A stretch of 64,000 nt of DNA from Escherichia coli (GTDB lineage Bacteria > Pseudomonadota > Gammaproteobacteria > Enterobacterales > Enterobacteriaceae). The notes beneath the pieces are model-generated. The model ran no database searches, was not told the DNA's origin, and saw nothing but the letters and a program-made list of their open reading frames with translations. Position numbers and translations under genes: made by a program. Positions within the stretch are counted from its first letter, which is position 1. Each line of letters opens with the position of its first letter. Location of the stretch: assembly GCF_044324875.1 (NCBI RefSeq), contig NZ_CP172185.1; one strand, written 5' to 3'. Positions 3,178 to 23,132 of this stretch are shown piece after piece.

Positions 3178-3936
3178 TTACTTAACTCCATCCGCGCTCA
3201 TACGATCGCGAATATGCTGGGCGCGTTCGGCGGATGCTGGATGGTCGTCAAACATTGAGCTTTGACGGCCTTCTTCCAGCTTCGCCAGTTTTTCAAAGCT
3301 GGTGGCAAGACCTGCCGGGCTGATGCCGCGTTGGCGCAGAAGATCGTAAGAATAATCATCGGCTTCTGCTTCCTGGCGCTGGGAGAATTGCGAATTAACT
3401 AATTTCTCGCCCAGATCACCGAGTTGTGATTGAGATAAACTGCCGACAATCCCGCCCGCAGAGGCTGCAGCTACTCGCACGGCATTTGTACCAAGTGCCA
3501 CCTGCATCCCTTTCTTCACATGGCCTAACGCCACGTGCCCCATCTCGTGACCGATCACCGCTTCGACTTCGTTATCCGTCATCATATCCATCAGCCCGCT
3601 ATAGACGCGGATACAGCCGTTAGCCATTGCAAAGGCGTTCACATCCTTCGCCATATACACTTTGTAATTCACCGGCTGACCGTTGATATTGTTGCCTAGC
3701 GCATTGGCAATAGTTGTCAGACGTTTAGCGTATTCGCTATTGGCTGGCGCAATCGTCGCCTTGCTATCCATCTCCTGACATGCCTGATCGCTCAGGGTTT
3801 TCACCTGCGCATCACTCAAACTGTAAGCCTGAAAAGCTTCCGCTCCTGATGAGAGCAGTCCGTTGGAGTCCATATTCTGGCAACCGGTCAGTACCGTTGC
3901 CACGCTCATTGCTACCAATAAGGCGCGAATTTTCAT
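3178..3936 (-). CDS. loiP: Periplasmic/outer-membrane M48 metalloprotease LoiP (YggG)
   Basis: Starts MKIRALLVAMSVATVLTGCQ (lipoprotein signal); HEMGH zinc motif; the longer ORF in the track is an upstream extension. Confidence 0.9.
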   Translation of the reverse strand: MKIRALLVAMSVATVLTGCQNMDSNGLLSSGAEAFQAYSLSDAQVKTLSDQACQEMDSKATIAPANSEYAKRLTTIANALGNNINGQPVNYKVYMAKDVNAFAMANGCIRVYSGLMDMMTDNEVEAVIGHEMGHVALGHVKKGMQVALGTNAVRVAAASAGGIVGSLSQSQLGDLGEKLVNSQFSQRQEAEADDYSYDLLRQRGISPAGLATSFEKLAKLEEGRQSSMFDDHPASAERAQHIRDRMSADGVK

Positions 3937-4213
3937 GTTTTCTCTTCCGCACAAGGTCAGGATTATTCTAAAAATGCGCCGTTTGCAGGTGAATCGACGC
4001 TCAGTCTCAGTATAAGGAAAAGCGCAGCGGACGGGCGAGCAGATTGCGCAACATGCGAGCATGATCCAGAGATTTCTGAAGCGGCAAAAGGATGTTCCAT
4101 GTACATGACGCGCGGCTTGCGGTAAATTGTTGGCAAATTTTCCGGCGTAGCCCAAAACGCGCTGTCGTCAAGTCGTTAAGGGCGTGCCCTTCATCATCCG
4201 ATCTGGAGTCAAA

Positions 4214-6205
4214 ATGTCCTCACGTAAAGAGCTTGCCAATGCTATTCGTGCGCTGAGCATGGACGCAGTACAGAAAGCCAAATCCGGTCACCCGGGTGCC
4301 CCTATGGGTATGGCTGACATTGCCGAAGTCCTGTGGCGTGATTTCCTGAAACACAACCCGCAGAATCCGTCCTGGGCTGACCGTGACCGCTTCGTGCTGT
4401 CCAACGGCCACGGCTCCATGCTGATCTACAGCCTGCTGCACCTCACCGGTTACGATCTGCCGATGGAAGAACTGAAAAACTTCCGTCAGCTGCACTCTAA
4501 AACTCCGGGTCACCCGGAAGTGGGTTACACCGCTGGTGTGGAAACCACCACTGGTCCGCTGGGTCAGGGTATTGCCAACGCAGTCGGTATGGCGATTGCA
4601 GAAAAAACGCTGGCGGCGCAGTTTAACCGTCCGGGCCACGACATTGTCGACCACTACACCTACGCCTTCATGGGTGACGGCTGCATGATGGAAGGCATCT
4701 CCCACGAAGTTTGCTCTCTGGCGGGTACGCTGAAGCTGGGTAAACTGATTGCGTTCTACGATGACAACGGTATCTCTATCGATGGTCACGTTGAAGGCTG
4801 GTTCACCGACGACACCGCAATGCGTTTCGAAGCTTACGGCTGGCACGTTATTCGCGGCATCGACGGTCATGACGCGGCATCCATCAAACGCGCAGTAGAA
4901 GAAGCGCGCGCAGTGACTGACAAACCGTCCCTGCTGATGTGCAAAACCATCATCGGTTTCGGTTCACCGAACAAAGCCGGTACGCACGACTCCCACGGTG
5001 CGCCGCTGGGCGACGCTGAAATCGCCCTGACCCGCGAACAGCTGGGCTGGAAATATGCACCGTTCGAAATCCCGTCTGAAATCTATGCTCAGTGGGATGC
5101 GAAAGAAGCAGGCCAGGCGAAAGAATCCGCATGGAACGAGAAATTCGCTGCTTACGCGAAAGCTTATCCGCAGGAAGCCGCTGAATTTACCCGCCGTATG
5201 AAAGGCGAAATGCCGTCTGACTTCGACGCCAAAGCGAAAGAGTTCATCGCTAAACTGCAGGCTAATCCAGCGAAAATCGCCAGCCGTAAAGCGTCTCAGA
5301 ATGCGATTGAAGCGTTCGGTCCGCTGTTGCCGGAATTCCTCGGCGGCTCTGCTGACCTGGCACCGTCTAACCTGACCCTGTGGTCTGGTTCTAAAGCAAT
5401 CAACGAAGATGCTGCGGGTAACTACATCCACTACGGTGTTCGCGAGTTCGGTATGACCGCGATTGCCAACGGTATCTCCCTGCACGGTGGTTTCCTGCCG
5501 TACACCTCTACCTTCCTGATGTTCGTGGAATACGCACGTAACGCCGTACGTATGGCTGCGTTGATGAAACAGCGTCAGGTTATGGTTTACACCCATGACT
5601 CCATCGGTCTGGGCGAAGATGGCCCGACTCACCAGCCGGTAGAGCAGGTTGCTTCTCTGCGCGTGACCCCGAACATGTCTACATGGCGTCCATGTGACCA
5701 GGTTGAATCTGCAGTGGCATGGAAATACGGTGTTGAGCGTCAGGACGGCCCGACCGCGCTGATCCTCTCCCGTCAGAACCTGGCGCAGCAGGAGCGTACT
5801 GAAGAGCAGCTGGCAAACATCGCGCGCGGTGGTTATGTGCTGAAAGACTGCGCCGGTCAGCCAGAACTGATTTTCATCGCGACCGGTTCGGAAGTTGAAC
5901 TGGCGGTTGCTGCCTACGAAAAACTGACTGCTGAAGGCGTGAAAGCGCGCGTGGTTTCCATGCCGTCTACCGACGCATTCGACAAGCAGGACGCGGCTTA
6001 CCGTGAATCCGTACTGCCGAAAGCGGTTACCGCTCGTGTTGCGGTAGAAGCGGGTATTGCTGACTACTGGTACAAGTATGTTGGCCTGAACGGCGCTATC
6101 GTCGGCATGACCACCTTCGGTGAATCTGCTCCGGCAGAGCAACTGTTTGAAGAGTTCGGCTTCACCGTTGACAACGTTGTTGCGAAAGCAAAAGAACTGC
6201 TGTAA
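4214..6205 (+). CDS. tktA: Transketolase 1
   Basis: 663 aa starting [19 protein letters not shown]; full-length match to TktA. Confidence 0.97.
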
Positions 6206-6218
6206 TCGGTAAGATGCA

Positions 6219-6243
6219 GGGCCGCGAAAGCGGCCCTTTTTTT
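6219..6243 (+). terminator. tktA intrinsic terminator
   Basis: gggccgcGAAAgcggccc hairpin followed by a T7 tract; the stop codon of the convergent SPFH gene lies within the T tract. Confidence 0.7.
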
Positions 6244-7150
6244 ACTTAGTAGAGATAAACGGAACTGTACTGCCGGGGATCATGGTATCGGGCAGCTTAC
6301 CGTCCCAACGCTCTGCAGTGGTTAGGGCAACAAGTCCGGGATTATCCCGCAGAGCTTCACCGCGCAGGCGGATAGCTTCTGCTTCAGCCGCACTTTTTAA
6401 ACGAATAGTTTCAGCCTCTGCCGCGCCTCTTACGCGAATAGTCTCAGCTTCTGCTTTGGCTGCCGCCAGTTTACTGTCTGCTTCTGCCTGGGCCTGAGTT
6501 ACCGCTATTTGCGCCTGGATTTTCTCTGTTTCCAGATTTTGCTTACGTGTGGCAATGGCGACTTCTGCTTTCATTCGGTCTTCAATCGACTTTTCATAAG
6601 CGTCAGAAAAATCAATATTTTCAATCTGAACACCATCAATCACCACCGGGCCAACGACGGCTTTACGCATTGCATTTTGCAGATCCTGAACGAGTTTTGT
6701 ACGATCCTGTACGGCGCTGATGGCGGTATATTGGCCGAAAACGTTCTCCAGTTGAGTTGGCAACTGACGGACAATCAGACGATCTTTTAATGCTTCAATG
6801 GTGTTGTAGGTGGTATAAACCGCGCCTGCTTCTGAAGGTTTAATGTGGAAGCTGACTGATACTGTCATTTGTGCCGGTTGCTGGTCGCGGCTGTAGGCCT
6901 GTAATCCCTGATAAACCACAGCCTGATTACGCGTGGAAATTTTCTCCACGCTTTCCATAAAAGGGATCTTAAAACCCAGCCCCGGCTCGGCAACTTTCAC
7001 GATTTTTCCGTAGCGCAGCAAAATGCCGCGTTCACCTTCATTAACGGTGTAATACGAGAGAAATGGCAGCACAACCACGGCAAGCACGCCAATGACGATA
7101 GCAATAGATTTTTGTGGGCGAAATGAGGTTATTGAAACAGGTGCTTTCAT
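6242..7150 (-). CDS. Band-7/SPFH (prohibitin/HflC-like) membrane protein, apparently accessory
   Basis: 302 aa from ATG at 7150 with an AAGGAAG ribosome-binding site; N-terminal hydrophobic anchor (IAIVIGVLAVVVLPFL); C-terminal Ala/Glu-rich coiled coil with three roughly 11-aa tandem repeats. Confidence 0.7.
   Translation of the reverse strand: MKAPVSITSFRPQKSIAIVIGVLAVVVLPFLSYYTVNEGERGILLRYGKIVKVAEPGLGFKIPFMESVEKISTRNQAVVYQGLQAYSRDQQPAQMTVSVSFHIKPSEAGAVYTTYNTIEALKDRLIVRQLPTQLENVFGQYTAISAVQDRTKLVQDLQNAMRKAVVGPVVIDGVQIENIDFSDAYEKSIEDRMKAEVAIATRKQNLETEKIQAQIAVTQAQAEADSKLAAAKAEAETIRVRGAAEAETIRLKSAAEAEAIRLRGEALRDNPGLVALTTAERWDGKLPDTMIPGSTVPFISTK
6360..6470. repeat. Three tandem ~33-bp repeats inside the SPFH gene
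   Basis: Repeated ...gcgaatagtctcagcttctgc... units encoding AEAETIRVRGA / AEAETIRLKSA / AEAEAIRLRGE. Confidence 0.45.
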
Positions 7151-12171: not shown

Positions 12172-12881
12172 AAATTGAATTAACGGTGAATGGTCTGAAG
12201 GTACAAGCACAGTACCATGTTGATGAGATAGAAAATGTACATAAACCGTTGCTGCGCATGTTGGCGGCCTTACAGACGGTAAATCCGCAGCGGCGTACGG
12301 TGGTTTTTCTTTGCGCTCCGCCGGGGACGGGTAAATCTACCCTAACCACCTTCTGGGAATATCTCGCGCAACAAGACCCGGAACTACCCGCTATACAGAC
12401 GCTGCCGATGGATGGTTTTCACCATTACAATAGCTGGCTGGATGCGCATCAATTGCGCCCCTTCAAAGGCGCACCAGAGACATTCAATGTAGCGAAACTG
12501 GCGGAAAACCTGCGCCAGGTCGTGGAAGGGGATTGTACGTGGCCACAGTACGATCGACAAAAGCATGATCCTGTTGAAGATGCGTTGCACGTTACCGCAC
12601 CACTCGTCATCGTCGAAGGAAACTGGTTGTTACTGGATGATGAAAAGTGGCAGGAGTTGGCATCTTTCTGCGATTTTTCTATTTTTATTCATGCACCTGC
12701 TCAAATTCTGCGGGAGCGCTTGATTAGTCGTAAAATTGCGGGAGGATTATCGCGGCAAGAAGCCGAAGCTTTTTATGCCCGAACCGATGGTCCCAATGTC
12801 GAGCGTGTGCTGGTGAATAGTCGTCAGGCCAATCTGATAGTAGAGATGACCGAAGAAGGCAGATATCACTTCAAAAGCTGA
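12168..12881 (+). CDS. yggC: P-loop NTPase/kinase family protein
   Basis: 237 aa; Walker A (PPGTGKST); 4-nt overlap with yggD. Confidence 0.85.
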   Translation: MKIELTVNGLKVQAQYHVDEIENVHKPLLRMLAALQTVNPQRRTVVFLCAPPGTGKSTLTTFWEYLAQQDPELPAIQTLPMDGFHHYNSWLDAHQLRPFKGAPETFNVAKLAENLRQVVEGDCTWPQYDRQKHDPVEDALHVTAPLVIVEGNWLLLDDEKWQELASFCDFSIFIHAPAQILRERLISRKIAGGLSRQEAEAFYARTDGPNVERVLVNSRQANLIVEMTEEGRYHFKS

Positions 12882-13165
12882 CAATTTATTCCAGTTATTG
12901 CAGGGGTATTATTACGCCAGCCTGGAATAAAGCCCCCTACAAAAGGGGATAAAAGTGTGATGTAAGTCAGATAAATGTCTTCTTCGGCTGGACAATCATT
13001 CCTTTTATTCCACGTTTCGCTTATCCTAGCTGAAGCGTTTCAGTCGATTAAATGTTCGACAATTAACCAATCAGTCGCAGTTTGCGACAGGTAAGGTTTC
13101 CCCGGACGATTTGCTGGATTACTCTGTCTGGCAAATTTGCTCAGGGAAAACCTTGCAGGAGATCT

Positions 13166-15612: not shown

Positions 15613-16692
15613 ATGTCTAAGATTTTTGATTTCGTAAAACCTGGCGTAATCACTGGTGATGACGTACAGAAAGTTTTCCAGGTAGCAAAAGAAAACAACT
15701 TCGCACTGCCAGCAGTAAACTGCGTCGGTACTGACTCCATCAACGCCGTGCTGGAAACCGCTGCTAAAGTTAAAGCGCCGGTTATCGTTCAGTTCTCCAA
15801 CGGTGGTGCTTCCTTTATCGCTGGTAAAGGCGTGAAATCTGACGTTCCGCAGGGTGCTGCTATCCTGGGCGCGATCTCTGGTGCGCATCACGTTCACCAG
15901 ATGGCTGAACATTATGGTGTTCCGGTTATCCTGCACACCGACCACTGCGCGAAGAAACTGCTGCCGTGGATCGACGGTCTGCTGGACGCGGGTGAAAAAC
16001 ACTTCGCTGCTACCGGTAAGCCGCTGTTCTCTTCTCACATGATCGACCTGTCTGAAGAATCTCTGCAAGAGAACATCGAAATCTGCTCTAAATACCTGGA
16101 GCGCATGTCCAAAATCGGCATGACTCTGGAAATCGAACTGGGTTGCACCGGTGGTGAAGAAGACGGCGTGGACAACAGCCACATGGACGCTTCTGCACTG
16201 TACACCCAGCCGGAAGACGTTGATTATGCGTATACCGAGCTGAGCAAAATCAGCCCGCGTTTCACCATCGCTGCCTCCTTCGGTAACGTACACGGTGTTT
16301 ACAAGCCGGGTAACGTTGTTCTGACTCCGACCATCCTGCGCGACTCTCAGGAATATGTTTCTAAGAAACACAACCTGCCGCACAACAGCCTGAACTTCGT
16401 ATTCCACGGTGGTTCCGGTTCTACTGCTCAGGAAATCAAAGACTCCGTAAGCTACGGCGTAGTGAAAATGAACATCGATACCGATACCCAATGGGCAACC
16501 TGGGAAGGCGTTCTGAACTACTACAAAGCAAACGAAGCTTATCTGCAGGGTCAGCTGGGTAACCCGAAAGGCGAAGATCAGCCGAACAAGAAATATTACG
16601 ATCCGCGCGTATGGCTGCGTGCCGGTCAGACTTCGATGATCGCTCGTCTGGAAAAAGCATTCCAGGAACTGAACGCGATCGACGTTCTGTAA
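15613..16692 (+). CDS. fbaA: Fructose-bisphosphate aldolase class II
   Basis: 359 aa starting MSKIFDFVKPGV; the longer ORF in the track is an in-frame read-through of the ERIC element. Confidence 0.97.
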   Translation: MSKIFDFVKPGVITGDDVQKVFQVAKENNFALPAVNCVGTDSINAVLETAAKVKAPVIVQFSNGGASFIAGKGVKSDVPQGAAILGAISGAHHVHQMAEHYGVPVILHTDHCAKKLLPWIDGLLDAGEKHFAATGKPLFSSHMIDLSEESLQENIEICSKYLERMSKIGMTLEIELGCTGGEEDGVDNSHMDASALYTQPEDVDYAYTELSKISPRFTIAASFGNVHGVYKPGNVVLTPTILRDSQEYVSKKHNLPHNSLNFVFHGGSGSTAQEIKDSVSYGVVKMNIDTDTQWATWEGVLNYYKANEAYLQGQLGNPKGEDQPNKKYYDPRVWLRAGQTSMIARLEKAFQELNAIDVL

Positions 16693-16716
16693 GATATTCC
16701 TTTCTGCTTATCTCAA

Positions 16717-16741
16717 GGCCCGCTCTGCGGGTCTTTTTTTT
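16717..16741 (+). terminator. fbaA intrinsic terminator
   Basis: cccgctctgcggg hairpin followed by a T9 tract. Confidence 0.7.
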
Positions 16742-16758
16742 GCTAAAAGAAAAATTGC

Positions 16759-16858
16759 CTGATGCGCTACGCTTATCAGGCCTACACGTATCCTGCAATA
16801 TATTGAATTCGCAGGTTTTTGTAGGCCGGATAAGGCGTTCACGCCGCATCCGGCATGA
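16759..16858. repeat. REP/BIME cluster (two REP units in opposite orientation)
   Basis: gcctgatgcgctacgcttatcaggcctac and gtaggccggataaggcgttcacgccgcatccggca. Confidence 0.8.
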
Positions 16859-17049
16859 CAAAGCGCACATTGATATCTGTCTGAGCCCCGCTCTGCGGGG
16901 ATTTTTTCGCCAAAAGCAAGGTGATGCAGATGAGAAATCTGTGATCTATTTGGCAAAATTATGCTTTATTGTTTACCCTTGTCAGACTGCCCGTCATAAG
17001 GCGGCGGAGTGTATTTCTCCATTTTGAGTCAGTTGAAAAGGAATATTGA

Positions 17050-17925
<876 letters not shown>

Positions 17926-17966
17926 TCATGTAAAGCGCCCATGAAGTTCATGGGCGCACTACCAAT

Positions 17967-19010
17967 TTAACGCATTGTTTCATCGAGTATATTGGCAACT
18001 TTTTGCATGACTTCCCCGGCTTTCTCCACGCCTTCCTTATTTTGCTTTTCTACCCACTGTGCTTGTTCTTGCTGATAACCGATCGCTTTCTGCCAGGCGT
18101 CCAGCCCTGATTTTTTCAGATAGCGAACCTGTGCACCTTCCTGCTCAAGCGTTTTTACCATGCTGATCAGGTTGTTATCTAATGCCTTGCCCAGTGCTTT
18201 CTCGGTTGTAATGGCAGCTCGTTGAATAGCCTCACGATCTCTGTTATCAAGGTTTTCCCACGATTGTTTATTCATTACCAACAGATAAACATGACCAAGC
18301 CAGAGAGAAGGTGAGAGCAACACATTCGGCGCAGCACGTTCAGCATGGATGTCATATCCGCTATCGAGATTGACCATTAAACCATCCAGTTTTCCATCCA
18401 TGAGTGCTTTAGTTATTTGATCATTCCACGGTAAAGTTACGGTTTTTGCCCCCGTATGAGTTAAATAAGCCCGATGCCAGAAACTGGCTGTTCGCCAGGT
18501 GGTTCCCTGAAGCGCAGTCAATTTATCAATGGGCCTGGTAGAGAAAAAGCCTACCGGGTAGCCAAGGAAAAACTGTAAATTCACGATATTGTTACGCTCA
18601 AGTTCAGCGTTAAATTCGGGAATTTCCGCATATACGCGACGAAAGAATTCTACCTGACTGGCTCCATGATCCGGGCCAATAGCAAAGCTCTTGAAGATTT
18701 GATGAAGCGGCAATTGTTTCGCGGTGTATTCCGGCACCACTATACCCATATCAGCTTTGCTGCCATCGCTTATTGTCGTCAGAGCGTCATAGCTGATGGC
18801 GGTTTCACCGTTCCAGTGTGGTTCGATTTTCAAACGCCCCTGCGACTCTTTTTCAATTTCTGCAAAAAATATCTCTTTAATTATTTGTGTACGCATTCCC
18901 CCGTAGGGTTCATGGTCTGTATAACGAAGAATTTTTTCAGCAGCAAAAATCGAGGGAGATAACAGAAGAAATCCTGATAAAAGAAAGGGGAGTAATTGTC
19001 GGTAGTGCAT
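17967..19010 (-). CDS. Orphan TRAP-type (DctP-like) periplasmic solute-binding protein, apparently accessory
   Basis: 347 aa; signal peptide MHYRQLLPFLLSGFLLLSPSIFAAEK; DctP-like motifs (HVYLLVMNKQSWENL, LDGLMVNL); AAGGAA ribosome-binding site; no DctQ/DctM permease genes nearby. Confidence 0.65.
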   Translation of the reverse strand: MHYRQLLPFLLSGFLLLSPSIFAAEKILRYTDHEPYGGMRTQIIKEIFFAEIEKESQGRLKIEPHWNGETAISYDALTTISDGSKADMGIVVPEYTAKQLPLHQIFKSFAIGPDHGASQVEFFRRVYAEIPEFNAELERNNIVNLQFFLGYPVGFFSTRPIDKLTALQGTTWRTASFWHRAYLTHTGAKTVTLPWNDQITKALMDGKLDGLMVNLDSGYDIHAERAAPNVLLSPSLWLGHVYLLVMNKQSWENLDNRDREAIQRAAITTEKALGKALDNNLISMVKTLEQEGAQVRYLKKSGLDAWQKAIGYQQEQAQWVEKQNKEGVEKAGEVMQKVANILDETMR

Positions 19011-19125
19011 ATCTGTTCCTTCAGTTTATTAATTCAACTTATACTATATTAATTTTATCAATTATCCCTAATGTTATTCCTGCGCTATAGTCTGCGCATC
19101 AGATAATTAGCCCGGAATTAATTAC

Positions 19126-19760
19126 GTGATATCTTATTACTTTCAAGGTCTTGCACTTGGGGCGGCTATGATCCTACCGCTCGGTCCACAAAATGCTTTT
19201 GTGATGAATCAGGGCATACGTCGTCAGTACCACATTATGATTGCCTTACTTTGTGCTATCAGCGATTTGGTCCTGATTTGCGCCGGGATTTTTGGTGGCA
19301 GTGCGTTATTGATGCAGTCGCCGTGGTTGCTGGCGCTGGTCACCTGGGGCGGCGTAGCCTTCTTGCTGTGGTATGGTTTTGGCGCTTTTAAAACAGCATG
19401 AGCAGTAATATTGAGTTAGCCAGCGCCGAAGTCATGAAGCAAGGCAGATGGAAAATTATCGCCACCATGTTGGCAGTGACCTGGCTGAATCCGCATGTTT
19501 ACCTCGATACTTTTGTTGTTCTGGGCAGCCTTGGCGGGCAACTTGATGTGGAACCAAAACGTTGGTTTGCGCTCGGGACAATTAGCGCTTCTTTCCTGTG
19601 GTTCTTTGGTCTGGCTCTTCTCGCTGCCTGGCTGGCACCGCGTCTGCGCACGGCAAAAGCACAGCGCATTATCAATCTGGTTGTGGGATGTGTTATGTGG
19701 TTTATTGCCTTGCAGCTGGCGAGAGACGGTATTGCTCATGCACAAGCCTTGTTCAGTTAG
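19126..19760 (+). pseudogene. argO: Arginine exporter ArgO (LysE family) split by a 1-nt frameshift
   Basis: Two ORFs (91 aa and 120 aa) that concatenate to the 211-aa ArgO sequence; frame switches at the overlapping ATGA at 19398–19401. Confidence 0.7.
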
Positions 19761-19852
19761 GCGCTATCTGATGGAAAAATAAAACAGAGGCGCTAAGCTT
19801 GCCTCCAGAGGTCCTGAATTTTAGGCAAGTCAATTAACACGGAGAGACTAAC

Positions 19853-20593
19853 GTGAAGTTCAAAGTTATCGCCCTGGCGGCATTAATGGGTATTAGCGGG
19901 ATGGCAGCGCAGGCTAACGAATTGCCGGATGGACCGCATATTGTCACCTCCGGTACGGCAAGCGTGGATGCGGTGCCAGACATTGCCACTCTTGCGATTG
20001 AAGTCAACGTGGCCGCGAAGGATGCCGCTACTGCCAAGAAACAGGCGGATGAGCGCGTCGCACAATACATTTCCTTCCTTGAACTCAATCAGATCGCGAA
20101 AAAAGATATCAGCTCAGCGAACTTACGCACCCAGCCAGATTATGATTATCAGGATGGTAAAAGTATCCTGAAAGGCTACCGTGCTGTGAGAACGGTGGAA
20201 GTCACGCTCCGTCAGTTAGACAAACTGAATTCCTTGCTGGACGGCGCGCTGAAGGCGGGTCTTAACGAAATTCGTTCTGTGTCGCTGGGCGTGGCGCAGC
20301 CGGATGCCTATAAAGACAAAGCGCGTAAGGCAGCGATTGATAACGCGATTCATCAGGCGCAGGAACTGGCGAACGGCTTTCATCGTAAACTGGGGCCGGT
20401 ATATAGCGTGCGCTACCATGTTTCCAACTATCAGCCCAGCCCAATGGTGCGGATGATGAAAGCCGATGCCGCGCCGGTGTCCGCCCAGGAAACTTACGAG
20501 CAGGCCGCTATTCAGTTTGATGATCAGGTCGATGTGGTCTTCCAGTTAGAACCTGTGGATCAACAACCCGCTAAAACACCTGCCGCACAATAA
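19853..20593 (+). CDS. yggE: Periplasmic oxidative-stress defence protein (SIMPL/DUF541)
   Basis: 246 aa with signal peptide; matches YggE. Confidence 0.9.
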   Translation: MKFKVIALAALMGISGMAAQANELPDGPHIVTSGTASVDAVPDIATLAIEVNVAAKDAATAKKQADERVAQYISFLELNQIAKKDISSANLRTQPDYDYQDGKSILKGYRAVRTVEVTLRQLDKLNSLLDGALKAGLNEIRSVSLGVAQPDAYKDKARKAAIDNAIHQAQELANGFHRKLGPVYSVRYHVSNYQPSPMVRMMKADAAPVSAQETYEQAAIQFDDQVDVVFQLEPVDQQPAKTPAAQ

Positions 20594-20760
20594 TACTTGT
20601 AGCCCGACGTATTGGTCGGGCTAATGCCTTTACCCGATATTGCCTCCTTTTTCTGTAATTTTCTGTAAAACCATGACGTAATCACCTATCTTTGCTCGCG
20701 GTTTCATCAAGGATAGGCTGACTGAAACGGTTAAGCGGACAAGGATGCGGGGGAGCGGGG

Positions 20761-21657
20761 ATGGACATTTTTATTTCGAAAAAGATGCGCAATTTCATTT
20801 TATTAGCGCAAACCAATAATATTGCCCGGGCGGCAGAAAAAATCCATATGACGGCTTCGCCATTTGGCAAAAGCATTGCCGCGCTGGAAGAACAAATTGG
20901 CTATACGCTATTTACCCGCAAAGATAATAATATCAGCCTCAATAAAGCCGGGCAGGAACTGTATCAAAAACTGTTCCCGGTTTATCAACGACTTTCTGCG
21001 ATTGATAATGAAATCCATAACTCAGGACGTCGTTCACGAGAAATTGTGATAGGCATAGATAATACTTATCCGACCATTATTTTTGATCAGTTGATTAGTC
21101 TCGGAGATAAGTACGAAGGCGTGACCGCCCAGCCAGTTGAGTTCAGCGAAAACGGCGTTATCGATAATCTTTTTGACCGTCAGTTAGATTTTATTATCTC
21201 CCCACAGCATGTATCTGCACGAGTTCAGGAACTGGAAAATCTGACTATCAGTGAACTACCACCGCTGCGATTGGGCTTTCTCGTTTCTCGCCGTTATGAA
21301 GAGCGTCAAGAGCAAGAGCTGCTTCAGGAGCTGCCCTGGCTACAAATGCGCTTTCAGAACCGGGCCAACTTCGAAGCAATGATTGATGCGAATATGCGAC
21401 CTTGTGGGATCAATCCAACCATTATTTATCGTCCCTACAGTTTTATGGCCAAAATCAGCGCCGTGGAGCGCGGACATTTTCTGACGGTGATCCCGCATTT
21501 TGCCTGGCGACTGGTGAATCCGGCAACGCTGAAATATTTTGATGCACCGCACAGGCCGATGTATATGCAGGAATATCTTTATTCAATCAGAAATCATCGT
21601 TATACCGCCACGATGCTTCAGCATATTGCTGAAGATCGTGACGGGACGAGTCATTAA
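20761..21657 (+). CDS. ygfI: LysR-family transcriptional regulator
   Basis: 298 aa; N-terminal helix-turn-helix; position matches ygfI; 3' end overlaps the convergent scpC by 4 nt. Confidence 0.85.
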   Translation: MDIFISKKMRNFILLAQTNNIARAAEKIHMTASPFGKSIAALEEQIGYTLFTRKDNNISLNKAGQELYQKLFPVYQRLSAIDNEIHNSGRRSREIVIGIDNTYPTIIFDQLISLGDKYEGVTAQPVEFSENGVIDNLFDRQLDFIISPQHVSARVQELENLTISELPPLRLGFLVSRRYEERQEQELLQELPWLQMRFQNRANFEAMIDANMRPCGINPTIIYRPYSFMAKISAVERGHFLTVIPHFAWRLVNPATLKYFDAPHRPMYMQEYLYSIRNHRYTATMLQHIAEDRDGTSH

Positions 21658-23132
21658 CCCAGCATCGAGCCGGTTGCAATTAAATTACGGTGTAAATCGA
21701 AGACGTGGCTAAGATCGTGGTGAATATGTCCGCCGGGCGCATTTTCCAGATAGCGATGCAGATAATCCCGATACATAGGATGTGCACAATTATCAATGAT
21801 AGTGCGGGCGCGTTGAAGCGGGGAAAGACCACGCAGATCGGCGATCCCTTGTTCGGTGATGATCACTTTGACGCTGTGTTCGCTGTGATCAACATGGCTG
21901 CACATTGGCACGACGGTTGAGATCTTGCCTTCTTTAGCAATCGACGGGGCCATAAAGATCGACAGATACGCGTTGCGTTCAAAATCGCCGCTGCCACCGA
22001 TGCCGTTCATCAGATCGACCCCGGCTACGTGCGTTGAGTTGGCATGCCCGTAAATATCAAACTCCAGGCCGACGTTCAGAGCGATGACGCCCAGACGACG
22101 GATGATTTCCGGGTTATTGGAAATCTCCTGCGGACGCAACACAATGCGGCTGGCAAAGTAATCCATATTGTCGTAAATCTTGCGCAGGGAATCGGCCGAG
22201 ATAGTCAGGCTGGAGGCGCTGGCCCCGCTGATTTTGCCCGTTTCCAGTAAATGCACCACCGATTCCTGTAGCACTTCCGAATACATCATAAACGGAGGAA
22301 TTTCCGGATTTTCCCCCAGACGCGCCATTACCGCATTATTGATGTTGCCCACGCCACTTTGCAGCGGCAGAAATTCCGGCGGAATACGCCCATGCGCCAT
22401 TTCCTGCAACAAGAACGTGACCACGTTATCGGCAATCTGCTGGCACATGGGATTTTGCTTATCCAGCATATTACCGGCGTCGGGCAAGTTGGTTTCCACG
22501 ACGGCGACAATCTTTTTCGGATCGATTTGCACATAGCGGGTACCGACGCGATCCATTGCATGGAAGATCGACACGCTATTGCGCCGCGGTGGCGCGCCAG
22601 GAATCACAATATCTGCCAGTTCTGCAACGCGCGGATCGTGATAGTGATTGAGTTCAATGATCACTTTCTTCGCCCGCAGCAGCCAGGTCGGCGCATTACC
22701 GATCCCGCTGGTTAACCAGACTCGACCATCCGGTGCCAGTGCCGATGCTTCAATGACGGCAACATCAATTTCGCCGAAGAAACCGTAATTGACCATTTGC
22801 GCCACTTCGCTCAAATGCAGGTCAACGAAACTCACCGCGCCCTGATTGATCTTTTTACGTAAACCGGACGATGTTTGATATGGCGCACGCTAGGAAACAG
22901 CATCGGCGTCAGAAAGTACATCGTCAGCGGCGGCGCTGATTGACGCCCCCGTCAGCAGGCGAATTTGATACGGCTTTTTGGCCTCATGCTGTTCGTTAGC
23001 TCTGCGGGCAATCGCGGTGGGTAAGGCTTTCGGCGAACCCGCTGGGGTAAAGCCGCTAAATGCCACCATGTCGTTATGCTGGATAATTTCTGCCGCTTCA
23101 TCGGCGGTCATCCTTGTCCACTGAGTTTCCAT
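21654..23132 (-). pseudogene. scpC: Propionyl-CoA:succinate CoA-transferase interrupted by an in-frame amber codon
   Basis: N-terminal 80 codons (METQWTRMTADEAAEIIQ...DADAVS) end at TAG (minus strand, 22890–22892); the same frame continues with the rest of ScpC; the full span is 492 codons. Confidence 0.75.

Follow-up and report, generated by a model that had tools for sequence, protein, structure and literature searches.

In a 64-kb window of Escherichia coli DNA (contig NZ_CP172185.1; the window is the whole stretch of 64,000 nucleotides that was analysed), the genes mscS and argO are separated by a gene for a secreted periplasmic binding protein of the DctP type, the type that belongs to transporters of the tripartite ATP-independent periplasmic (TRAP) kind. 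The protein is a member of a subfamily that has become separated genetically from DctQ and DctM, the TRAP membrane subunits, and its gene is an ancestral gene of the Enterobacteriaceae that most E. coli have deleted. Our preferred reading, which we hold with about even confidence, is that it acts as a stand-alone periplasmic receptor that would close on a carboxylate through Arg173 (R173), without a dedicated TRAP permease. The features of the locus are as follows.

17967..19010, minus strand: DctP-like coding sequence, 347 amino acids (aa), stop codon included (list of open reading frames (ORFs), profile, structure and alignments)
17050..17925, plus strand: mscS, long-tail allele of 291 aa (ORF; WP_000389820)
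19126..19760, plus strand: argO pseudogene, ORFs 19126-19401 and 19398-19760 (1-nt deletion)
17935..17957, no strand assigned: GC-rich hairpin common to mscS and the DctP-like gene (folding energies, inverted repeat)
19011..19125, no strand assigned: divergent intergenic region of 115 bp, with the ribosome-binding site AAGGA at 19017-19021

The DctP-like gene converges with mscS and diverges from argO. The initial annotation had proposed an AT-rich gene for a 347-aa secreted DctP-family protein on the strand opposite to these two genes, over a span (17926-19125) that is exactly the interval separating them, and the ORF, the profile search and the fold bear this out. The gene has a GC content of 0.448 and a GC content at third codon positions (GC3) of 0.428, and is thus AT-richer than its neighbours (GC3 0.52-0.58). 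Its ribosome-binding site lies 6 nt 5' of the ATG. The N-terminus, MHYRQLLPFLLSGFLLLSPSIFA/AEK, is predicted to be of the Sec type, with a hydrophobic core followed by IFA/AE; the predicted signal peptide covers approximately residues 1-23, and equivalent N-termini are present in all aligned homologues.

The protein matches Pfam DctP (PF03480) over residues 48-310 (i-E 3.1e-17, 63.3 bits) and the NCBIfam model NF037995 (TRAP_S1) with 54.9 bits, just over the cutoff of 50. The RefSeq annotation of this gene is WP_000559340.1, named "C4-dicarboxylate TRAP transporter substrate-binding protein". The C4-dicarboxylate part of this name is unsupported because the dctP model TIGR00787 scores 16.7 bits, far under its cutoff of 175. 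The ligands of the closest solved relatives are aromatic acids or pyroglutamate, not C4-dicarboxylates.

An AlphaFold2 model built from an alignment of 20 sequences is confident (pLDDT 87.7, pTM 0.85), and the predicted fold is a two-lobed alpha/beta Venus flytrap with a hinge, superposable on solved TRAP binding proteins. Using Foldseek, we found matches to TarP, SiaP, TeaA and others with probability 1.00 and TM scores of 0.70-0.77, at 15-21% identity; the top structural matches are TarP (with cinnamate or coumarate), Dde_0634 and a protein that binds pyroglutamate. The best matches of the family profile in PDB are 4nap and 4pgn (E 1e-20). All 20 family members have R173, which lies in the motif WRTASFWH; it is also present in nine of ten sister proteins and aligns with the conserved arginine of the solved DctP proteins 4nap, 4n6d and 2pfz (alignment A1 and the model lack the initial methionine, so that their numbering is one below the true residue number). 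Judged from these alignments, R173 is the putative conserved carboxylate-binding arginine, and from our own reading of the SiaP sequence we take it to be the equivalent of SiaP R147. Altogether, the protein is a secreted DctP-type (TRAP) periplasmic binding protein.

Uncoupling of the subfamily from DctQ and DctM

The subfamily has 43-60% identity and about 70 invariant columns. Its members come from Enterobacterales, Rhizobiales, Rhodobacterales, Synergistaceae, metagenome-assembled genomes (MAGs) of rumen Bacteroidales and Fibrobacter, and one flavobacterium. In a set of 1.84 billion representatives clustered at 50% identity, no more than about four full-length clusters lie above 44% identity, after which the identity falls to 27-34%. 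About half of the invariant residues are found in the subfamily alone (E34, Y74, E94, Y95, Q104, K107, F177, H179, H240, Y242 and others), which would point to one ligand common to its members.

We searched 82 related loci, of which 60 have at least 3 kb on both sides, by tblastn with two DctQ and two DctM proteins from sister loci. DctQ/DctM was found near the subfamily gene at only one of the 82 loci, which is one of the 60 well-flanked ones, in Enterobacillus tribolii, where a fused DctQM lies 1.5 kb off together with its own, different binding-protein gene. The same queries had no match in the 64-kb window, as the initial annotation had stated, and neither subunit is annotated within 50 kb of the gene in strain C4. 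A 196-aa membrane ORF that follows the gene in a MAG of the Planctomycetes-Verrucomicrobia-Chlamydiae (PVC) group (L050) was considered as a DctQ and rejected, as it is not DctQ-like. In the nearest sister proteins (P0138 and P0146, 27-32% identity), DctQ and DctM are encoded immediately downstream in all six places. The subfamily is therefore genetically uncoupled from both membrane subunits. DctP-type binding proteins have been described as consisting solely of two lobes and as nearly always encoded in operons with their membrane partners (PMC12344293); orphan genes for TRAP binding proteins have been acknowledged and are uncharacterised (PMC12344293; PMC5812351). A literature search on the RefSeq accessions, DctP-esterase fusions and orphan DctP proteins returned nothing specific.

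The subfamily gene is frequently a single-gene unit beside a regulator. This is a divergent TetR at seven Rhizobiales loci and a divergent OmpR/EnvZ-type pair at four to five loci of Rhodobacterales and Hyphomicrobiales; an AraC gene lies 13 nt upstream in Leeuwenhoekiella, with transposases on both sides, and MarR or PadR neighbours occur in other taxa. In seven Rahnella species a gene for a TonB-dependent receptor of the heme/transferrin type is followed by the binding-protein gene on the same strand after a gap of about 140 nt. A PadR regulator and a reductase-like gene are located upstream, and no inner-membrane transporter is encoded nearby in these loci:

L037, L038, L040, L044, L045, L047 and L049, approximately 3300-7000: Rahnella loci

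In Synergistaceae (rumen MAGs), stand-alone copies are found, and the DctP-like domain also forms the C-terminal part of secreted multidomain proteins. One architecture combines FMN_bind-like, COesterase and DctP domains in 1,017-1,074 aa, and the 1,074-aa protein, encoded by a single ORF, matches Pfam COesterase (type-B carboxylesterase, 2e-119) and DctP (1.4e-22). Others consist of two FMN_bind-like domains and DctP, or of an alpha/beta hydrolase (PcaD-like or DLH) and DctP; the alpha/beta hydrolase-DctP and FMN_bind-DctP fusions are also seen in independent gene calls. The fusion genes are the following.

L086, 3727-6951: Synergistaceae fusion gene, COesterase-DctP
L071, 3883-6936: Synergistaceae fusion gene
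L073, 5248-6939: Synergistaceae fusion gene
L075, 5194-6945: Synergistaceae fusion gene

According to independent gene calls, the operons that contain the fusions encode MarR, Amidohydro_2, an aldo-keto reductase, a nitroreductase and a CocE/NonD hydrolase, and they adjoin a beta-glucoside-type phosphotransferase system (PTS) and a glycoside hydrolase family 1 (GH1) enzyme.

Ancestral position between mscS and argO

The slot between mscS and argO is occupied likewise in E. marmotae (82% aa identity) and E. whittamii (88%), and at 19 non-Escherichia enterobacterial loci from about 10 genera (Yokenella, Superficieibacter, Enterobacter, Huaxiibacter, Citrobacter, Lelliottia, Silvania, Klebsiella spallanzanii, Kluyvera and other Enterobacteriaceae). 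A neighbour-joining tree of the homologues, with canonical TRAP relatives as the root, unites all syntenic copies in one clade, and the branching within Escherichia matches the species order. The synonymous divergence (dS) to E. marmotae is 0.45 for the DctP-like gene and 0.48 for mscS. Within Escherichia the ratio of nonsynonymous to synonymous divergence (dN/dS) is 0.18-0.26, against 0.05 for mscS, and the gene is thus under purifying selection. No repeats flanking the gene were detected in a repeat search and no tRNA within 10-28 kb in a tRNA search, and mobility genes are absent from the annotation of the syntenic strain C4.

Because relatives carry the gene in the same slot and the copies form one clade, the K-12 arrangement is derived by deletion. 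Local alignment with shuffled controls detected no remnant of the gene above chance in the K-12-like mscS-argO spacer, so the case for deletion comes from phylogeny and not from scars. The gene is an ancestral Enterobacteriaceae gene that a small part of E. coli has kept and the rest has deleted. The protein of Escherichia is 73-81% identical to that of Superficieibacter and 58% to that of Citrobacter, with the opposite pattern in MscS, and some exchange by homologous recombination may have occurred at the conserved mscS-argO site.

The word "inserted" in the initial annotation has to be given up: a horizontally acquired gene that recently entered between mscS and argO would agree with the low GC3, the patchy distribution in E. 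coli and the closeness to Superficieibacter, but it is extremely improbable and already largely refuted by the many genera with the same slot, the single clade, a dS equal to that of the flanking mscS, and the lack of mobility signatures in a gene that is never on plasmids.

Using megablast against 5,426 complete E. coli genomes, we found the gene in 216 (about 4%), always chromosomal and always single-copy. The allele of the window (at least 99% identity) is present in 156 genomes, for example SMS-3-5, C4 and 118UI, and an allele of 95-99% identity in 58, including O145:H28 and SCU-316. Escherichia sp. MOD1-EC7003 (L009) has the ORF broken into two parts. About 96% of the complete E. coli genomes, K-12-like strains among them, lack the gene; mscS directly adjoins argO in these genomes, as the initial annotation had stated for K-12, and MscS has 286 aa (WP_000389818, ending in KEDKAA). 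A long MscS tail accompanies the DctP-like gene, with 291 aa in WP_000389820, and the tail in E. marmotae reads KENKESDAVTR. When arrangements with and without the gene are compared, similarity ends on one side in the last mscS codons, where the junction had been suspected from an MscS tail unlike that of K-12, and on the other side at the ribosome-binding site of the DctP-like gene; about 100 nt upstream of argO are common to both arrangements and have diverged.

Flanking regions and other features of the window

The hairpin at 17935-17957 has folding energies of -20.1 and -22.0 kcal/mol (z -6.0 and -5.3), and none of 200 shuffled sequences was as stable. It forms the centre of an imperfect palindrome with 26-nt arms (17920-17972) that takes in both stop codons; the outer ends of the palindrome are the last codons of the two convergent genes, CGT TAA on each strand. 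The hairpin is a probable bidirectional terminator for mscS and the DctP-like gene. A scan of 17850-19250 for intrinsic terminators detected no canonical one, and the hairpin was not called by this simple scan because it has no long T run.

On the other side, the DctP-like gene shares the 115-bp divergent spacer with argO, as first annotated. In other genera the spacer has about 150-205 nt and consists of a conserved argO-proximal part followed by about 90 nt beside the binding-protein gene. In the window allele and in E. whittamii it has 115 nt, the gene-proximal segment of about 90 nt is absent from the window allele, and the ribosome-binding site directly abuts the conserved region upstream of argO. 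Any transcription of the gene must therefore start inside or beyond the argO upstream region, which is the only upstream DNA in the window. A sigma-70 scan of 17850-19250 found no consensus promoter in the spacer, and an Rfam scan of 16500-20800 found nothing there, its only matches being of the repetitive extragenic palindromic (REP) type upstream of mscS. An AT-rich stretch of the spacer that resembled a Fur box by eye was dropped, as only about 12 of 19 positions agree within AT-rich DNA. In the syntenic strain C4, argP lies about 8 kb off.

A 309-aa gene with its own leader sits in the spacer of E. marmotae and of 58 E. coli genomes, upstream of the DctP-like gene; it is full-length in 38 of the E. 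coli genomes and truncated in 20. It was annotated in three loci as follows.

L006, 7017-7946: 309-aa gene of E. marmotae
L010, 4950-5879: 309-aa gene
L003, 5066-5761: 309-aa gene

The copies in O145:H28 and SCU-316 are truncated, as is that of E. albertii. The 309-aa protein has no Pfam or NCBIfam match. Its homologues are widespread in Proteobacteria; one is named "DUF1963" by one source and some are fused to PF23917. We did not treat it as a partner of the binding protein, since it looks cytoplasmic.

The window contains two pseudogenes within 4 kb. The first is argO, reported as disrupted in the initial annotation, which, compared with strain C4, has lost 1 nt near 19398 and is thereby divided into two ORFs. 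The second is scpC (propionyl-CoA:succinate CoA transferase; 21654-23132, minus strand), which is split into ORFs of 393 and 80 aa; a comparison with strain C4 shows no indel, so that a premature stop by a nonsense change is implied. A REP-type repeat at 16778-16859, in the gap between fbaA and mscS, scores 42.5 bits with Rfam ES036, above the gathering score, while naRNA4 is below its own; this repeat is the probable cause of the numerous scattered matches that megablast gave in each genome.

Further from the locus, the window lacks, at about 12813-12945, a block of about 3.2 kb that is present upstream of epd in strain C4 (L095, 11493-14760). The block contains a PPC-domain gene and an energy-coupling factor (ECF) transporter module, made up of two ATPases and the T and S components; E. 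marmotae also has this ECF module near epd. Between speA and speB, a gene for a predicted lipoprotein of 243 aa (LAGC lipobox) is located at 1343-2074, and the corresponding stretch of C4 differs.

Possible function and comparison with known systems

As a stand-alone receptor, the DctP-like protein would be exported by its Sec signal peptide and would close round a ligand with a free carboxylate, clamped by the invariant R173. It would be a self-contained capture module, which stands alone in Proteobacteria and in Synergistaceae is joined to periplasmic esterases or FMN_bind-like modules, and it would pass its ligand, or a signal, to a partner encoded elsewhere and not to a dedicated TRAP permease. 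We favour this reading because the gene is orphan throughout the subfamily, the sisters are operonic, the gene often forms a single-gene regulated unit, and hydrolase fusions occur. The suggestion in the initial annotation that the protein is a sensor or a binding partner rather than a transporter component is plausible, as it fits the missing DctQM and the fusions.

For the ligand, alignments and context tentatively suggest an acid of aromatic or hydrophobic character, which an esterase may release. Cinnamate, coumarate, ferulate and further aromatic acids are the ligands of those solved relatives that are nearest by structure and profile, and the gene content of the Synergistaceae operons next to the beta-glucoside PTS and GH1 is consistent with such a ligand. 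A wider proposal, possible more than probable, is that with this subfamily a DctP-type lineage has for the first time abandoned TRAP transport altogether, as a portable carboxylate-capture module that works with esterases and flavoprotein modules and binds an esterase-released or toxic aromatic or hydrophobic acid for detoxification or scavenging. The module would be fused in Synergistaceae and elsewhere free-standing under TetR, MarR, PadR, AraC or two-component control.

Several observations weigh against the stand-alone receptor. The assignment of a ligand is weakened by the identity to solved proteins of only 15-21%, and some of the context calls come from our own crude ORF calling in high-GC loci. 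The position of the Rahnella gene behind that of a TonB-dependent receptor is one that is usual for uptake, and a distal partner is possible because E. coli encodes the TRAP membrane pair YiaMN elsewhere. The gene may also be poorly expressed or dispensable in this strain, since 96% of E. coli have lost it, its dN/dS exceeds that of mscS by a factor of four to five, and the upstream segment of other genera is missing from the window allele.

An ordinary TRAP binding protein that delivers a carboxylate nutrient to a distal DctQM (YiaMN in E. coli, others elsewhere) for Na+-driven uptake is unlikely. The complete DctP fold with its conserved arginine, the acknowledged orphan TRAP genes (PMC12344293), the uptake-like position in Rahnella and the fused DctQM of Enterobacillus 1.5 kb away would suit it. 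However, that DctQM has its own binding-protein gene, DctQM is absent at 59 of the 60 well-flanked loci from several phyla whereas the sister clades are strictly operonic, catabolic genes are not consistently linked, and tethering to esterases or FMN_bind modules would be unexpected in a protein that shuttles to a permease.

A ligand-binding co-sensor, which would dock on a histidine kinase or chemoreceptor at its periplasmic domain in the manner of LuxP with LuxQ and TorT with TorS, appears decidedly unlikely. The divergent OmpR/EnvZ-type regulator-kinase operon at four to five alphaproteobacterial loci and the single-gene units beside regulators in many taxa speak for it, but no kinase or chemoreceptor gene is adjacent in the approximately 25 Enterobacteriaceae loci; TetR, MarR, PadR and AraC, as one-component regulators of the cytoplasm, do not require a periplasmic co-sensor, and esterase fusions do not fit a sensor.

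That the E. coli gene is a functionless, decaying relic, an intact ORF heading to loss, we regard as very unlikely. Its absence from most genomes, the split ORF of MOD1-EC7003, a dN/dS above that of mscS, the deleted gene-start segment with no consensus promoter found, and the nearby pseudogenes argO and scpC are in line with decay, but dN/dS is well under 1, all subfamily-invariant residues are kept, and the 347-codon ORF is intact, has a strong ribosome-binding site in front of it and recurs in 156 genomes with an identity of 99% or more.

If the wider proposal of a lineage that has left TRAP transport is right, the E. coli that retain the gene would own a periplasmic binding activity that K-12 lacks. 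The gene had already been annotated in RefSeq, as an ordinary accessory gene; the new elements are how the subfamily behaves and in which direction the event went. For E. coli, the direction is corrected: the K-12 mscS-argO junction and the shorter MscS tail are the product of a deletion, and strains such as SMS-3-5 and O145:H28 keep an ancestral periplasmic protein. For the TRAP field, a tight cross-phylum subfamily breaks both the two-domain and the operonic rule, with its orphan loci and repeated hydrolase fusions, and the role of orphan TRAP binding proteins can now be tested directly with one small soluble protein.

Among the DctP-type binding proteins of E. coli, none other than YiaO of the YiaMNO TRAP transporter is known to have been characterised. 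YiaO is encoded with YiaMN and is set apart from the DctP-like gene by this gene context. The sisters P0138 and P0146 are 27-32% identical to the DctP-like protein over their full length and have R173, W178, W195, N214, D216 and W237 in common with it, but they are part of canonical DctPQM operons, in contrast to the subfamily. The aromatic-acid binders TarP (7nra, 7nr2, 7nsw, 7ntd), the marine 5iga and 5i5p, and Desulfovibrio Dde_0634 (4nap, 4pgn) have the same two-lobed DctP fold (Foldseek E 1e-17 to 1e-19, TM 0.70-0.76) with the conserved arginine aligned; they differ in their low identity to the DctP-like protein, many of whose residues in the pocket region are subfamily-specific and whose gene has no DctQM beside it. 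TAXI-GltS BP0403 of Bordetella pertussis is likewise a TRAP-type binding protein with extra domains that is unlinked to TRAP membrane genes (PMC12344293). It belongs, however, to the TAXI subfamily, which has no amino acid sequence similarity to the DctP type (PMC12344293), and its identified partner GltS is adjacent, whereas the DctP-like gene has no adjacent partner. The orphan binders in the family of tripartite tricarboxylate transporters (TTT), Bordetella Bug and AdpC of R. palustris, are also periplasmic carboxylate binders without an encoded membrane partner (PMC5812351). They are members of the TctC family with large lineage-specific expansions of paralogues, whereas the subfamily described here is a single, slowly evolving orthologue found across phyla.

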